Shown here in pieces: positions 84-5,842 of a DNA stretch of 5,842 nt. Under the pieces are notes generated by a model that was given only the letters and a program-made list of their open reading frames with translations, was not told the origin of the DNA and searched no databases. How positions within the stretch are numbered: the first letter of the stretch is position 1; the number at the start of each line of letters is the position of its first letter. The position numbers and the translations under genes are program-made. This DNA comes from a virus (Duplodnaviria > Heunggongvirae > Uroviricota > Caudoviricetes). Location: IMG/VR virus record IMGVR_UViG_2695420676_000007. One strand, written 5' to 3'.

Positions 84-278
84 TCATAGCTGAAGGCGTC
101 TGTAACAGCCGAACTGGTAATCTGCCAGCCCCGCCATAACCAACTGGGTCAGTATTAACTGACAGCGTTCGCGTGAAAGATATGTGTTTTGTGCAATCTC
201 CCCGACTGTTGCCGGTTCGATGCTTAATTCATTAAAAACAACTTTCGCCGTTTCTGTCATATCTTGCTGTTTTAGCAT
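84..278 (-). CDS. Small hypothetical protein with a winged-helix/HTH-like core (TVGEIAQNTYLSRERCQLILTQL); putative DNA-binding protein
   Basis: Six-frame ORF 84..302. I prefer the internal ATG at 278..276 because it is preceded by AGAAGGAAAAAAGAC (AAGGA Shine-Dalgarno, about 8 nt spacing), whereas the ATG at 302 has no good RBS. The sequence resembles the N-terminal half of the 5221..5709 protein (P-x-T-x-G-[DE]-I-A ... [YL]-S-R-[QE]-R), suggesting paralogous wHTH domains. No family assignment possible without a search. Confidence 0.5.
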   Translation of the reverse strand: MLKQQDMTETAKVVFNELSIEPATVGEIAQNTYLSRERCQLILTQLVMAGLADYQFGCYRRLQL

Positions 279-360
279 GTCTTTTTTCCTTCTGGTTAAC
301 ATGACATACCAATAACTCTTGTCTAAAAAGCCAGCAAGATAAAAAGTCAGTATTCACGAC

Positions 361-400: not shown

Positions 401-426
401 AAAAAAACCCGCTCGACGGCGGGTTT
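401..426 (-). terminator. Rho-independent terminator, minus-strand orientation
   Basis: Perfect 8-bp stem (AAACCCGC / GCGGGTTT, 5 GC pairs) with a 6-nt loop. On the minus strand the hairpin is followed by a run of 7 T (401..407 are A on the + strand); on the + strand only TTT then AAG follows, so it is oriented for minus-strand transcripts. Confidence 0.7.
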
Positions 427-690: not shown

Positions 691-1962
691 ATGTCAGACA
701 TAAAAAATATACTAAAATGCATGTACTTTGATAAAAATAGATACTCAAACTTTGGCTCCGTAATTAAAAGTCTAGAGATAAATGGATTTCGAGGAATAAA
801 AAAACTAACATTAAATATAAATTTTCCGGTAACTGCAATATCAGGGCTAAACGGCGCTGGGAAAAGCACTCTTGGGCAGTTAGCAATATGCGCATATAAA
901 AAACCAGTTACAGCCCGTGAATATAAGAGATTATATATTAAAGATTTTTTCCCTGTATCTAAAGCCGATCCAGCCCCTTTCGATAATGACGCCAGTGTCA
1001 TTTATAAATATGAAACAAATGATTCAACGAAAACACAAGATGTGACTGTCACTCGCATAAAGTCTTCTTGGTCTGGATATAAAAGACAACCAGAAAGACA
1101 CTGTTTTTACATTGGTTTTACTGTCTATATTCCAAAAGTAGAACGTAGAGATATAAGTGTTTATGGCGGTAAAGACTTTGATTTAACAGAGAGAAGAAGC
1201 GTCGACCATTCAGTAATATTGAAGATGGCAAAAATAATAGGTCATCCATATGATGATATCGCATTCCAAGGAATTTCTCATAGAGCACGTCGTTCAGAAA
1301 TTGGTATTGTTGAAAGACTTGGGTATTCTTATTCTGAAAATAACATGGGGTTTGGCGAAGGAAGAGTTCTTTATACGGTTGATATGCTTGAAACAGCTCC
1401 AGAGCAAAGTCTTTTCGTACTAGAAGAACCAGAAACATCTCTTCATGAAAGCGCACAGTATGAATTTGCAAAATATTTAATGGAAGTATGTCAACGTAGA
1501 AAACATCAAATAATATTATCAACACACTCAAGTGTGATATTAAATGCTTTACCTCCTGATGCACGAAAATTACTTATTAGAGATCAGACTGGTGTCTATA
1601 TCAAAGATGGAATTTCAACAACTCATGTGAGATCAATACTGTCTGATGGGCAGTTTAAAGGGCTGCATATTTGCGTAGAAGACCAGTTTGCAAAAGTTTT
1701 ACTTAGTGAAGTAATTAGAGCAAAGCGGAGAGACATTCTTAAATCCATTCAAATCACTGATATTGGAGATAAAGATGCAGTCCGACAAGCAGTCGAGGTA
1801 TTCAAGAAAGCAGGCCTTAATGTTATTGCCGTAAGAGATGCAGATGTTGGAGAAAACATTAAAGATGATTTATTTTCTTTCCCTGGCAATAGGCCACCAG
1901 AAGTAGAAGTATTTCAACATGAGGAAGTAAAAAAAATTCCTCTACAAGGAGTATCATATTGA
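691..1962 (+). CDS. ABC-type P-loop ATPase (AAA_21/OLD-like) fused to a short C-terminal TOPRIM-like domain; candidate anti-phage defence or exclusion protein; 3' end apparently frameshifted
   Basis: 423-aa ORF with Walker A GLNGAGKST (aa 52-60, nt 844..870), Walker B LFVLEEPETSLH (aa 241-252, Asp replaced by Glu at 245) and H-loop ILSTHS (aa 275-280). The C-terminal region (aa ~320-390) has ICVED (E330) and VRDADVGEN (D383-x-D385), reminiscent of the TOPRIM Glu...DxD signature of OLD/DUF4435 nucleases. It lies on the strand opposite to all flanking prophage genes, in markedly AT-rich DNA with its own promoter and RBS. Confidence 0.85.
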   Translation: MSDIKNILKCMYFDKNRYSNFGSVIKSLEINGFRGIKKLTLNINFPVTAISGLNGAGKSTLGQLAICAYKKPVTAREYKRLYIKDFFPVSKADPAPFDNDASVIYKYETNDSTKTQDVTVTRIKSSWSGYKRQPERHCFYIGFTVYIPKVERRDISVYGGKDFDLTERRSVDHSVILKMAKIIGHPYDDIAFQGISHRARRSEIGIVERLGYSYSENNMGFGEGRVLYTVDMLETAPEQSLFVLEEPETSLHESAQYEFAKYLMEVCQRRKHQIILSTHSSVILNALPPDARKLLIRDQTGVYIKDGISTTHVRSILSDGQFKGLHICVEDQFAKVLLSEVIRAKRRDILKSIQITDIGDKDAVRQAVEVFKKAGLNVIAVRDADVGENIKDDLFSFPGNRPPEVEVFQHEEVKKIPLQGVSY

Positions 1963-2315: not shown

Positions 2316-2687
2316 CTAGATATTTGAGTCCATTTCCAATTCTATTTCTAACATTATCAACATACCTTCAATGATGCCTTCTGCCTTTTGCAATAAGCGC
2401 CCAACCCAGCAATCAGAACGCCCATGTTTACGGGCAAGCGCCATAAACGTCATACCACCTACATAATAATCTACTAATAAATCGTGCAAATCGCTGTTGT
2501 TCTTTTTCAGACGGGCCATGCACCCGCAAATGATCATCGCGTCATCGTCACAACATTGCGGGCGGGATTTTACTTTTGAAGGAAGTAATCCCTTAAAACC
2601 GGCAGCAATGGACGACCAGGTCACATCCTCATGATTATTAGCCGCCCATGCCCCCCAACGTTCAAGAACCATTTGAATATCACGCAT
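2316..2687 (-). CDS. quuD: Late-gene antitermination protein Q (short QuuD/phage-82-type Q)
   Basis: The translation from the ATG at 2687 ([62 protein letters not shown]...) matches my recollection of the DLP12 QuuD antiterminator family, including the Cys-rich zinc motif. The six-frame start at 2702 is a TTG; the ATG at 2687 is preceded by GGAGGA with 6-nt spacing. Stop TAG at 2316..2318. Confidence 0.85.
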
Positions 2688-2704
2688 CAACTTCCTCCAC
2701 AAAA

Positions 2705-3385
2705 TCAGGCCAGCACGCCTATTGCCAGCGCACGATCGATAAAACGAAATATCAGCTCCAACTGGGAGCCATACTTCTCTTCAAATGCCACGGTATCCGC
2801 ATGCAGCTCGTCGTGATGCTTTCTGCACAAAGGCAACACAAAGAGGTCATGCGCTTTTGTACCCATTCCACCCTGACCGTGGCCTATCAGGTGGTGGGGA
2901 TCATCAGCAGGCTTTCCACAACATGCACACGGCTGTGTCTTAACCCAGCGCGTGTACTTTTCGTTAACCCAGCGGCGACGTTTTGGGCGTAACATAAAAG
3001 ACTCCGGCGACTCCGGATCCACTTTCAGCGCCAGCACCTTTTTCACTTTATCCTGGATGATGCTGGTGGCAGGAACCGAAGGAACAAGGTCACTTTCCCG
3101 GGTGACAGACGGCACAACAGGCTTCGGTAATCTCAGTGCCTTACGGGCTGCACTTTCCGGCAAGGCACCCGCCAGGTCATTACGAACCAGCCACCAGCAC
3201 AGTTCCGGCATTGTCACAACGTGACTGTCATCAAAACCGAGATCCCGACGCACAACAGACAACACCCAGCGGGCACAGTTATCCGTTGCCATTGATTCCA
3301 GCCGTTCCGTGAACTGATCGCGCAGCTGGTTATCGCAGTGCCAGCACAGACGGATTGCGCCCGGAGCGTGTCGCATTGTGGTCAT
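2705..3385 (-). CDS. DUF968-like (YdfU-like) Cys/His-rich phage protein; putative zinc-binding nuclease-like protein of the nin region
   Basis: 226-aa ORF with motif [44 protein letters not shown], which I recall as typical of DUF968 proteins found just upstream of Q in E. coli prophages. The ATG at 3385 overlaps the stop of the upstream ORF (ATGA). Family name from memory, not verified. Confidence 0.7.
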
Positions 3386-3690
3386 GTTCTCGCTGTGCCA
3401 GTCGGAATGAGGCCACTGGCAGCCAGTAACCAGCTTTCAAGACATTCCACGCCACCAGCACGACGGATCACTGCCTCATTGCGGAACACGGCCCGAACGG
3501 CAGGATCATCCGCCAGCGGTTGTGATGCCGCCGGAACGGCGCCACTGGCGAAAGATGAATAACTTTCCGGCTCAGGCTCCAGCAGGACACGCCCCTGCAT
3601 AAACAGGGGCATCAGCTCTGAACCAGGCCTGAACAATACGATCCCCATACGCGGGGCAATTTCAGGGGTCAGTAGTGCTCTCACGGTCAC
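3382..3690 (-). CDS. Hypothetical protein (about 100 aa or shorter); start codon uncertain
   Basis: ORF exactly filling the gap between the KilA-N gene stop (3692..3694) and the DUF968 gene start, with an ATGA stop/start overlap at 3382..3385. The first codon at 3690 is GTG with no clear Shine-Dalgarno; internal ATGs exist. It could be a separate gene or the detached N-terminal part of the downstream protein. Confidence 0.4.
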   Translation of the reverse strand: MTVRALLTPEIAPRMGIVLFRPGSELMPLFMQGRVLLEPEPESYSSFASGAVPAASQPLADDPAVRAVFRNEAVIRRAGGVECLESWLLAASGLIPTGTART

Positions 3691-3691
3691 C

Positions 3692-4489
3692 TCAATGAAC
3701 GGTATCGAGCAGCTTTAACAGCTCAGTGAATCGGGATTCGAAGAAATGCGGCTGCGTCTCGCGCGGATTTGCAGGACTGGTGATGTTCTTGCCGAACATG
3801 CAGCCTTTCGCCGTCAGCGACCAGAATTTTTTGATGTTGTTAATCGCTGTACGGCTGTATCGTTCGCGCTGTTCGACGATCCCCAGCTTCGCCATCTGGT
3901 GATATGCCTGATTAGCCGTCAGGCGGATACCATACTGCTTCAGCAGTGCACTCAGTGACAGCGTGGGGCGGCTTGAGCCATCAGGCGCGTCAGCAGGAGC
4001 ATCAATGGCATAACGCGGTGCCAGATTCGGTAAGCCAACAGCCTCCTGGAGTTTCTGACAGGCCCCAAGCACAGATGAGTTAGACAGATTTAACTCCCGG
4101 CGCATAAAGTCCAGCAGAATCACGCCAGCCTGCATCTTGTCAGCAGCCTGTCCGGATAACTTTTCCGGCGCGCTGGTTACCATATCGAAAGTACGGATCA
4201 CCTTCAGATGGAATGACGGGCTGATCCACATTGCATAGGCATACACCAGTTCCTTGCAGACATACGTTCCCTGGTTATTTCCACCTCGAATGACATTTAC
4301 TGGCGCTATATTGACCGAGTTGCAAATCTGCAACTCGCTTATTAAACGTTCAGTTTGCTCATTGCGGAGCCAGAATGCAGGCTTATGCTTATCCAGAGAA
4401 CCGGCAGCCCTGTGCAGATCGTTCAGGCTGTAACGACCATAAGCATCACGACGAACTTCAATACCATCAATAACCATCAGATTACTCAT
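3692..4489 (-). CDS. KilA-N domain protein with ANT/KilAC-like C-terminal region (Roi/antirepressor-like)
   Basis: N-terminus (LNDLHRAAGSLDKHKPAFWLRNEQTERLISEL ... VIRGGNNQGTYVCKELVYAYAMWISPSFHLKVIRTF) fits the KilA-N consensus; the C-terminal TLSLSALLKQYGIRLTANQAYHQMAKLGIVEQ resembles ANT/KilAC modules. ATG at 4489 is preceded by GAGGAG with 9-nt spacing. Confidence 0.85.
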   Translation of the reverse strand: MSNLMVIDGIEVRRDAYGRYSLNDLHRAAGSLDKHKPAFWLRNEQTERLISELQICNSVNIAPVNVIRGGNNQGTYVCKELVYAYAMWISPSFHLKVIRTFDMVTSAPEKLSGQAADKMQAGVILLDFMRRELNLSNSSVLGACQKLQEAVGLPNLAPRYAIDAPADAPDGSSRPTLSLSALLKQYGIRLTANQAYHQMAKLGIVEQRERYSRTAINNIKKFWSLTAKGCMFGKNITSPANPRETQPHFFESRFTELLKLLDTVH

Positions 4490-4508: not shown

Positions 4509-4898
4509 TCAGGCGGCTGCACCCGCCGTTTTCTCGTACTTACTGATAGTGATTTCGACCTTCCCTTCCGGGATAACCGGCCCCCACTCCACCAGCATTC
4601 TTTTCACCTGGCTGTCGTCCACCCACACACCCGCGTGGGTCAGGGCGTCAAACAGCGCCTTGTTATAGTTGTCCAGATCGCGAAGCCGGTTATCCGGAGG
4701 AAACAACACGATCTCCACTGAAGCTGGTGCCGACGTTGGTTTCGGCAAACGACGTAACTGCTCAATGATGGCTGCACACGCTGCGCTCTGGAATTTTCGC
4801 CCCGCCGCGCTTATCAGGCTCTTACCTGCAAGCGCCCCTTTATTGGGGTGTCGCCAGTACGTGTTCACGCTGGGCGGAAAAGGCAGGATCAATTTCAT
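4509..4898 (-). CDS. rusA: RusA-family crossover junction endodeoxyribonuclease (Holliday junction resolvase)
   Basis: 129-aa protein with LPFPPSVNTYWRH near the N-terminus and the RLRDLDNYNKALFDALTHAGVWVDDSQV catalytic core, which align with E. coli RusA (LPWPPSNNRYYRH ... [28 protein letters not shown]). ATGA overlap with the upstream gene. Confidence 0.9.
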   Translation of the reverse strand: MKLILPFPPSVNTYWRHPNKGALAGKSLISAAGRKFQSAACAAIIEQLRRLPKPTSAPASVEIVLFPPDNRLRDLDNYNKALFDALTHAGVWVDDSQVKRMLVEWGPVIPEGKVEITISKYEKTAGAAA

Positions 4899-5221
4899 AC
4901 TTTCAGGCCCCTCTCATGTAACCAGTGGGCTGCACGCAGCCTGGCGTTTTCCTCACCGGCAAGCAGTGAGCGGATAATCCCGACCGCCTCGCTGTCGTCG
5001 TCCTTCACCGCGGTATGAAGAGTGATACCCCGGGCCACGCCACGCTTTATCGTGATGACGCCTTTTTTCTCCAGTGCGCGGAGGTGCTCCACAGCTGCAT
5101 TCACTGAACGGTATCCCAGCATGGTTGCCACCTCCTGATTGGTTGGCGGAAAGCCACGCTCTTTCTGATAAGAAATCAGCATATCCAGCACCTGCTGCTG
5201 GCATTGAGTTAACGTCGTCAT
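4895..5221 (-). CDS. LexA N-terminal DNA-binding-domain protein lacking the S24 peptidase domain
   Basis: MTTLTQCQQQVLDMLISYQKERGFPPTNQEVATMLGYRSVNAAVEHLRALEKKGVITIKRGVARGITL aligns closely with the LexA N-terminal wHTH ([65 protein letters not shown]). Only about 35 residues follow, so no protease domain. The six-frame start at 5254 is GTG; I prefer the ATG at 5221..5219, which overlaps the upstream stop (TAATG) and follows a GGGGG run. Confidence 0.75.
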   Translation of the reverse strand: MTTLTQCQQQVLDMLISYQKERGFPPTNQEVATMLGYRSVNAAVEHLRALEKKGVITIKRGVARGITLHTAVKDDDSEAVGIIRSLLAGEENARLRAAHWLHERGLKV

Positions 5222-5709
5222 TACGCCCCCACGTAATTCCCTGACAGATACCACTCTTCACCCGATGCAGCGCGCTTGCTGCTTTTCTGTAAGCACTGCT
5301 CACGACGCGCCAGAAAATTGTTTCGTTCTGGCTGGGAGTGGCTTTCACGGAATGCCGCCATCCACACGGTTGCAGCACGACGGTATAAGCCCCTTGACTC
5401 CAGTTCTTCAGCCTGGCGGGTCAGGCACAAAATCACCCGGGGCTCGTTAGTGCCGACATAGAAATTGCGCACAGGTCTGGTTTCACGAACTGGTTGTGGT
5501 TCCGGATCCTGCGCTCTCTCAGTCAGGCGCGGGAAATGTCTGTGTGTATCTCCTTCACAACGGTGAGCCACACGACCACTCTGACGTAACTTGCTTGCTG
5601 ACTGCAGAACGCGCTGCCGTGAGTAACCTGCAAAAGCATCCGCAATGTCTCCGGAAGTACACCCCGGATGGGCTTCAATGAATTTCTGAACTTCATTCAA
5701 AAGACTCAT
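5221..5709 (-). CDS. Putative transcriptional regulator: N-terminal wHTH-like region plus PerC/ANR-like C-terminal motif
   Basis: The C-terminal region AEELESRGLYRRAATVWMAAFRESHSQPERNNFLARREQCL matches what I recall of the PerC/Pch family motif (LE..GL[WY]RRAA..W), common in E. coli prophages. The six-frame start at 5715 is GTG; the ATG at 5709..5707 is preceded by AGGGGGTGA. Family assignment from memory, moderate confidence. Confidence 0.6.
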   Translation of the reverse strand: MSLLNEVQKFIEAHPGCTSGDIADAFAGYSRQRVLQSASKLRQSGRVAHRCEGDTHRHFPRLTERAQDPEPQPVRETRPVRNFYVGTNEPRVILCLTRQAEELESRGLYRRAATVWMAAFRESHSQPERNNFLARREQCLQKSSKRAASGEEWYLSGNYVGA

Positions 5710-5711
5710 GA

Positions 5712-5842
5712 TCACCCCCTGAATCCTGCCGGGATCTGGCTGTAGTCCACGTTGTCGTAACTGGCTTTGAAGTACGGGTCCTCGCGTCTGGCTGCAGATA
5801 CCGCAGGAACTTCCCAGGATTCTTCGAAATGACGATCCGGAC
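5712..5842 (-). CDS. Partial ORF, C-terminal 42 codons of an upstream nin-region gene running off the window end (...PDRHFEESWEVPAVSAARREDPYFKASYDNVDYSQIPAGFRG*)
   Basis: Minus-strand frame open from the window edge to TGA at 5714..5712, two nt before the next ATG (5709), consistent with the coupled gene spacing elsewhere in this operon. Another minus frame is also open here; this one was chosen on composition and stop position. Confidence 0.4.
   Translation of the reverse strand, partial: PDRHFEESWEVPAVSAARREDPYFKASYDNVDYSQIPAGFRG

Follow-up and report, generated by a model that had tools for sequence, protein, structure and literature searches.

The SOS response controls mutagenesis, the induction of prophages and of Shiga toxin, and antibiotic tolerance. 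The LexA repressor carries a C-terminal S24 peptidase and dimerisation domain, with a Ser119-Lys156 dyad and self-cleavage at Ala84-Gly85, and it is through this C-terminal domain that LexA dimerises and contacts RecA. Mobile elements are known to carry anti-SOS factors, such as the DinI-like proteins and the plasmid protein PsiB. At the N-terminal end of E. coli LexA, the residues of helix III that contact the DNA are Ser39, Asn41, Ala42, Glu44, and Glu45 (PMC3091678), the role of Glu44 being taken from this source only. When it is joined to a dimerising partner, the LexA DNA-binding domain represses at CTGT-N8-ACAG, as occurs in the LexA two-hybrid systems (PMC12430536). The sole characterised phage protein of the kind described here is gp6 of GIL01, a truncated LexA homologue of 66 aa whose target is a non-LexA palindrome and which acts as an activator of the late promoter P3, while gp7 of the same phage is a further anti-SOS factor of a mobile element (PMC6182141).

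The present analysis deals with a gene of a tailed phage, found in a stretch of 5,842 nucleotides (hereafter, the window), whose product, the LexA-head protein of the window, is given the working name LexN. The LexN coding sequence occupies positions 4895-5221 of the minus strand, stop codon included, and both the list of open reading frames and the sequence itself place the ATG at 5221-5219 and the TGA at 4897-4895, which yields a protein of 108 aa (MTTLTQCQQQ...HERGLKV). This protein is 100% identical to the RefSeq entry WP_000210164.1 (327 nt, “LexA family transcriptional regulator”), and it aligns over its full length with phrog_362 (residues 1-108 against profile positions 1-106 of 106, E 1.4e-59), whose PHROG label is “transcriptional repressor”. 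A GTG at 5254, which would extend the protein to 119 aa, was rejected as the start, given that the homologues and the RefSeq annotation use the ATG.

Upstream of LexN lies a PerC-like gene of the yfdN type (5221-5715, minus strand), identified by PF06069 PerC (E 7e-9), phrog_1324, and the RefSeq name yfdN, and within its 3' end a GGGGG run resembling a Shine-Dalgarno sequence can be read 4 nt before the LexN ATG (5226-5230, minus strand). The TAA of the PerC-like gene (5223-5221) shares one base with the LexN start, in the form TAATG, and the ATG (4898-4896) of the downstream gene, which encodes a RusA Holliday-junction resolvase (4509-4898, minus strand; PF05866, E 1.1e-14), overlaps the LexN TGA in the form ATGA. 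The initial annotation, which had proposed translational coupling to both of these neighbours, was right in its coordinates and overlaps, and at the level of the sequence LexN is real and was correctly described there.

The N-terminal part of LexN is a LexA-type winged helix-turn-helix domain (residues 1-65; 5027-5221, minus strand), identified by PF01726, by the LexA proteins in the PDB, and by its fold. The LexA_DNA_bind model (PF01726) is matched over all of its 65 positions by LexN residues 1-65 (E 2.9e-19; score of 69 bits, cut-off 23.7), and the search of the PDB sequences returned LexA proteins only, with E. coli LexA (1lea, 3jso) matched at E ~1e-15 over residues 2-69, a value that improves to E 7e-26 when the profile of the LexN family is used. 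The AlphaFold model has a mean pLDDT of 83 and the topology of LexA, with helices at residues 6-22, 28-35, and 40-52 followed by a two-strand wing, and it superimposes on 1lea and 3jso with an rmsd of 1.0-1.3 A over 67-70 residues (~50% identity). A profile search capable of assigning the protein to some other winged helix family thus led to LexA_DNA_bind from end to end, and the initial claim of a complete LexA N-terminal domain, DNA-reading helix included, stands, with an rmsd of ~1.1 A.

The recognition helix, RSVNAAVEHLRAL, was placed by alignment to E. coli LexA at residues 38-50 (5072-5110, minus strand). Four of the five LexA contact residues are identical in LexN (S39, N41, A42, and E45), and the fifth, E44, is replaced by V, as is P40 of LexA within the same helix, while the wing motif R64-G65-I66 (RGI) is common to both proteins. 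In the family alignment, most lineages retain S39, N41, and an acidic residue at position 45, and no member has an acidic residue at position 44; conservation across the family is highest in the DNA-reading helix and in the wing, at S39, N41, R64, G65, and I66.

The part of LexA that follows this domain has no counterpart here. The Pfam profile search gave no match to Peptidase_S24 (PF00717) in LexN, and the full-length lexA model TIGR00498 reached 70.8 bits, below its cut-off of 110.95, with only model positions 1-91 of 203 aligned; LexN ends 39 residues after the wing. LexN therefore has the N-terminal winged helix-turn-helix of LexA proper and lacks the C-terminal S24 domain with its Ser119-Lys156 dyad, in agreement with the original description of a 108-aa protein without the autocleavage domain. 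Given the absence of the catalytic domain, self-cleavage is excluded on structural grounds, and RecA therefore cannot inactivate LexN by this route. A heterodimer of LexN with host LexA, about which the initial annotation had been reserved, is also unlikely, given that LexA dimerises through the C-terminal domain that LexN does not have.

Instead of this domain, LexN has a tail specific to its family (residues 73-108; 4898-5005, minus strand), which went unmentioned in the initial annotation and which is predicted by AlphaFold to form two helices (73-88 and 93-103), with pLDDT values of 86-88 over residues 73-103. The motif xIIRALLAGEENARxRAxxWLxERG is kept in the close homologues and in relatives down to 39% identity, and A97 and L101 are invariant in the alignments of the family. 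Profile searches with the tail found no Pfam or PDB match. Its reading as a homologue of the LexA hinge, which arose from a single-sequence alignment that set LLAGE opposite VAAGE, was dropped, as the family profile gives no homology beyond residue 74. The tail is probably a candidate dimerisation element that stands in for the C-terminal domain of LexA.

The position of LexN among its neighbours bears on when it would be made. The rest of its operon (2316-4489, minus strand), identified through Pfam, PHROG, and annotated relatives, consists of a KilA-N protein (3692-4489), a DUF968/HNH protein (2705-3690), and the antiterminator Q (2316-2702). The DUF968/HNH gene is a single ORF of 329-330 aa in the relatives and is divided in the window by a 10-nt deletion at ~3424 into the segments 3382-3690 and 2705-3385 (minus strand), so that in the window the gene has either become a pseudogene or been misassembled. 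In the relatives, cI (an S24 repressor) is divergent from a series formed by cro, ymfL, a replication protein, PerC (with or without dam), LexN, RusA, KilA-N, DUF968, and Q, after which the annotated relatives have a variable insert and then the lysis genes. Across the 80 viral contigs, the genes from PerC through DUF968 form a block with 86-100% conservation, while Q and the region beyond it are variable. The prophage setting initially attributed to LexN can thus be specified as the early rightward operon of the lambdoid relatives, between the replication genes and Q, and, given that this is a lytic operon, LexN would probably be made after induction or infection rather than in the quiescent lysogen.

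Scans of the window for promoters and terminators found no convincing private promoter for LexN, and a search for short inverted repeats found no convincing operator or conserved non-SOS palindrome there. The putative promoter of SfV dam, annotated within the PerC gene, was considered and set aside as weak, with the -35 in the window further degraded from TTGCGC to TGGCGC. Rfam gave no RNA family match in the window.

Some other elements of the window were recorded. Between Q and the late genes, a moron is found on the opposite strand (691-1962, plus strand), in a low-GC tract (501-2500) of 30-35% GC, against 50-58% in the nin region. Its product is an AAA_15/AAA_21 ATPase (phrog_3940; RefSeq “ATP-dependent nuclease”) with a match (E 6.8e-47) to HEC-04, a candidate defence protein in PADLOC, and in comparison with strain MEI008 the window has an extra A in an A-run at ~1929, which shortens the product from 483 to 423 aa. 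A small ORF of 72 aa (84-302, minus strand) belongs to phrog_331, sits in the position of SfV orf47, and has weak winged-helix matches (DprA_WH and TrmB, E ~0.005), with a terminator-like hairpin upstream of it (405-426, minus strand).

The conservation of this gene order allows for the possibility that LexN acts mainly through protein contacts, either as an accessory of RusA or of the DUF968 nuclease or as a binder of RecA or host LexA. In lineages with 39-51% identity, LexN lies directly or nearly directly upstream of RusA-DUF968-Q, and the gene order LexN-RusA(-DUF968) persists down to 39% identity, in many cases with overlaps of 4 nt; genes related to RecA (DinI and a RecA_C-like ORF) are neighbours of LexN in distant lineages, and the tail resembles no known dimerisation fold. 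On the other hand, the best-conserved residues are in the DNA-reading helix and the wing, the C-terminal domain that LexA uses for RecA contact and for dimerisation is absent, and the order of genes in phage nin regions often reflects timing rather than physical interaction. In the synteny set, composed of 80 viral and 10 distant loci, RusA is missing in L216 alone, where LexN persists without it, and inserts separate LexN from RusA in L093 and L089. Given this, a role mainly through protein contacts seems improbable.

With regard to the operators that LexN might occupy, the window itself offers little. The initial annotation had seen no SOS box in it by eye, and the counts bear this out, as CTGT-N8-ACAG is found at chance level (23 occurrences with at most two mismatches against 22.2 expected) and without a single exact match. 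The wider search used a 20-nt matrix built from ~21 LexA sites of E. coli, which is uncurated and serves as a lead, and on which the known sites score 13-27. On this uncurated matrix, 54 boxes scoring at least 20 were found in 45 of the 80 viral LexN loci (1.28 Mb), while block shuffles of these loci, of equal size, gave 0-1 and a control of 80 lambda-type NinG loci without LexN (1.25 Mb) gave only one.

These boxes are spread over separate mosaic modules. In the first, a canonical box such as TACTGTATGTAAAAACAGTA is found within the coding sequence of cI, in the linker that connects the HTH domain to the S24 domain (6330-6349 in L007, where cI is at 5866-6558 on the minus strand; 836-855 in L003; 20204-20223 in L088), and three diverged alleles (NTVCKNS, STVFINS, and TTVYKSS) have it at the same codons, while the surrounding residues of the linker differ. 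An internal promoter in the sense of cI, TTTACC-17-TACTGT, is possible by eye only.

In the second module, the box TACTGTAAAAATAAACAGTG (score 22.3) lies over codons 3-9 of a late-region DNA methyltransferase downstream of Q (19907-19926 in L087; 34170 in SfV, L002; 12208 in phiNP, L088). The 20-mer is identical in the Citrobacter phage phiNP, despite a module identity of only 86%, and in the nearest relative of the window, from strain MEI008 (98.3% identical), this methylase box falls 75-94 nt beyond what is the left end of the window.

In the third module, the box TACTGTATTTATGAACAGTG is placed in a 183-nt spacer between RusA and a KilA-N variant of 67% identity, beside the promoter-like TTGATA-17-TAAGTT (10765-10784 in L072; also in L055, L074, L075, and L082). 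This arrangement suggests that the KilA-N variant, possibly antirepressor-like, may be a LexA-controlled gene.

The association of LexN with these modules is close in the phage records of E. coli and Shigella, where LexN is also present in all 27 records with the methylase module and in all 13 with the cI module. In phiNP, by contrast, the methylase box is present and so is the one within cI, but no LexN was found in positions 15064-39433 of its 44932 nucleotides, a stretch that covers the whole of the early rightward operon. The presence of the boxes thus does not depend on LexN, and they may serve host LexA only. As the distance from LexN to the modules does not exceed ~5 kb and the loci have a common ancestry, the co-occurrence of LexN and SOS boxes may reflect linkage rather than function.

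A different arrangement is found in four lineages with 39-42% identity to LexN, in which a canonical SOS-box promoter heads the LexN operon itself (513-1518 in L216; 4242-5405 in L214; 4530-5408 in L089; 4530-5357 in L092). On the uncurated matrix, the box of L089 scores 21.0 and that of L092 scores 26.4, and the two loci have the same layout of terminator, -35 TTGCAx, -10 AATAxT, and box. In L214, tandem boxes (26.3 and 17.7 on the same matrix) are followed by a RecA_C-like ORF, a stand-alone protein of 95 aa corresponding to the RecA C-terminal domain, while in L216 a box with a score of 27.0 on that matrix is followed by a DinI gene. The order of these distant operons is thus the box, DinI (L216) or the RecA_C-like ORF (L214), a conserved ORF of 75-82 aa, and LexN. 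The recognition helix is altered in three of the four lineages (SQNTVFIH, SSNAVLLH, and SPYAAYEH), beside canonical upstream boxes, so that these proteins, at least, may recognise a different sequence; in these three, the SOS box may do no more than make the operon SOS-inducible.

An alternative is that LexN is a dedicated phage regulator, in which the domain derived from LexA has drifted to a phage-specific, non-SOS operator, and which activates or represses phage promoters in the manner of GIL01 gp6 at P3. The truncated LexA homologue gp6 provides a model, given that it binds GaCACA..TGTGaC and activates P3 (PMC6182141), and the replacement of E44 and P40 by V within the recognition helix of LexN, the variation of the helix in distant members whose upstream boxes remain canonical, and the SOS boxes of phiNP, retained in a phage with no LexN in the stretch fetched, are all consistent with such a change of target. 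Against this, the inverted-repeat search of the window yielded no conserved non-SOS palindrome, and no candidate for an activator site of the gp6 type, overlapping a -35, was found there either. The late genes of the phages that carry LexN already depend on Q, and the helix of LexN is much closer than that of gp6 to gammaproteobacterial LexA, BLASTP finding no alignment between the two phage proteins. A private operator is thus possible, with the doubts on its side outweighing what favours it.

The distribution of LexN shows that, as an object, it is not new; it is common, already annotated, and belongs to PF01726 and PHROG 362, which the initial annotation overlooked. Of 5426 complete E. coli genomes, 2233 (41%) contain the gene, almost always at 95-100% identity, and it occurs in 50 phage records, among them SfV (orf42), SfII, SfIV, mEp460, cdtI, 2H10, and the Stx2a, Stx2c, and Stx2k phages, where its annotation ranges from “unknown” to “LexA DNA binding domain protein”. 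A species-wide genome scan with a narrow alignment recovered mostly true LexA genes together with six loci of the LexN family, one of them a disrupted copy. In the full-text literature, no functional study of the LexN protein in E. coli or Shigella was found. What is new here is the conservation of the tail throughout the family, the LexN-RusA-DUF968-Q order that extends to 39% identity, and the strong link with canonical SOS boxes.

The only defence-system match that PADLOC gave for LexN is a weak CARF-like one (E 3.6e-4), which is taken as generic similarity between winged helix-turn-helix domains. Six other proteins of 140-350 aa (P0132, P0148, P0152, P0153, P0186, and P0211) have two tandem LexA_DNA_bind stretches, an architecture unlike that of either LexA or LexN.

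As the window carries two disrupted genes, i.e., the split DUF968 gene and the truncated ATPase, the prophage may be decaying, and LexN could be imagined as a functionless remnant of a captured lexA that is itself in decay. Its ORF is intact, however, the same allele (100% identical) recurs in many of the E. coli genomes counted above and the gene is also present in plaque-forming phages, and the full architecture, tail included, is kept down to 39% identity. The 51 nucleotide alleles of the fetched loci have 51 synonymous codon variants against 13 nonsynonymous ones, and LexN is therefore a maintained protein rather than a gene remnant, which makes decay a most improbable explanation.

The mechanism that we favour, with a confidence that is about even, is that LexN, produced early in lytic growth, acts as a RecA-proof “mini-LexA” that re-occupies LexA-type operators. 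The LexA-type winged helix and the conserved two-helix tail would probably form a dimer, held together through the tail, and LexN is transcribed, with translational coupling, as part of the early rightward operon that runs from the replication gene through PerC, LexN, RusA, KilA-N, and DUF968 to Q. LexN would then appear after induction or infection, at a time when host LexA has already been destroyed, and it would most likely recognise LexA-type CTGT half-sites, canonical SOS boxes being the expected targets. By re-occupying the SOS boxes on the phage DNA, and probably or possibly those on the DNA of the host, it could damp or time the genes under SOS control. The LexA-like contacts, the precedent of dimerised LexA DNA-binding domains, the resistance to RecA, the timing, and the company of SOS boxes and RecA modulators together make this the most economical mechanism.

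The early suggestion that such a protein might sit on SOS boxes as a non-inducible occupant has become more plausible after the analysis, on account of the contact residues, the LexA two-hybrid precedent, and the box-rich phages. The domain identity of LexN, the lack of the protease, the gene context, the conservation, and the SOS-box-rich genomic company are observed. Counting against the mini-LexA are the lack of a box in the window, the case of phiNP, the linkage and descent of the loci, V44 and V40, the altered helices of the distant lineages, the retargeting of gp6, and the uncurated nature of the scoring matrix.

A more specific form of the mini-LexA mechanism, which we put forward tentatively and hold to be rather doubtful, is that LexN re-imposes repression after the cleavage of LexA, both on the boxes of its own genome (inside cI, at the late methylase, and ahead of KilA-N or of the LexN-Q operon) and on the SOS regulon of the host, so that together with DinI-like proteins it would make up a phage “SOS shut-off” module. 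If this were true, the prophage content of a strain would shape the strength and duration of its SOS response, given that the gene is in 41% of the complete E. coli genomes, with effects on mutagenesis, on the induction of co-resident prophages and Shiga toxin phages, and on colicin release. A protein that sits at the operator and is immune to removal by RecA would offer prophages a simple way to reset or silence the SOS response and to time their own SOS genes. A role in induction would also be medically relevant, given the presence of LexN in the Stx2a, Stx2c, and Stx2k phages and in the serotype-converting phages of Shigella. The association with SOS boxes and the operons that combine an SOS box, DinI, and LexN give the question of LexN function some substance.

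In comparison with the known systems, LexN has the same fold as the N-terminal domain of E. coli LexA, with ~50% identity over residues 1-69, the RGI wing, and four of the five contacts of helix 3, but it differs from LexA in the lack of the hinge, the cleavage site, the S24 domain, and LexA-type dimerisation, in V44 and V40, and in having a 36-residue tail of its own. The fusions with LexA's DNA-binding domain used in two-hybrid systems resemble LexN in combining this head with a foreign dimerising element, and they repress a reporter independently of RecA (PMC12430536); they are artificial, on the other hand, and built on the authentic LexA domain, whereas in LexN the dimerisation through the tail and the operator specificity are predicted features.

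The gp6 proteins of the Bacillus tectiviruses GIL01 and Bam35 are, like LexN, LexA DNA-binding domains of temperate phages without the protease part, gp6 is also encoded in an early operon, and the switch of GIL01 uses host LexA boxes (PMC6182141). Unlike LexN, gp6 has no tail, its helix is VSHKTAHRYL, with a critical K38, and it is an activator at a non-LexA site (PMC6182141). In a MAFFT alignment, gp6 has K-T where LexN has N-A, so that the critical Lys38 is not in LexN, and, as BLASTP found no alignment of the two, gp6 and LexN are therefore independent truncations of different LexA lineages, i.e., analogues and not orthologues. If LexN does use a private operator, phages would have recycled the LexA head as a regulator a second time, independently of GIL01 gp6.

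Finally, DinI, PsiB, and gp7 act on RecA or stabilise LexA on the DNA, whereas LexN would replace LexA at the operator, and a DinI gene is present in the operon of a distant LexN relative (L216). If the mini-LexA mechanism is true, the outcome would be the same as that of DinI, PsiB, and gp7, that is, an SOS response damped by a mobile element.
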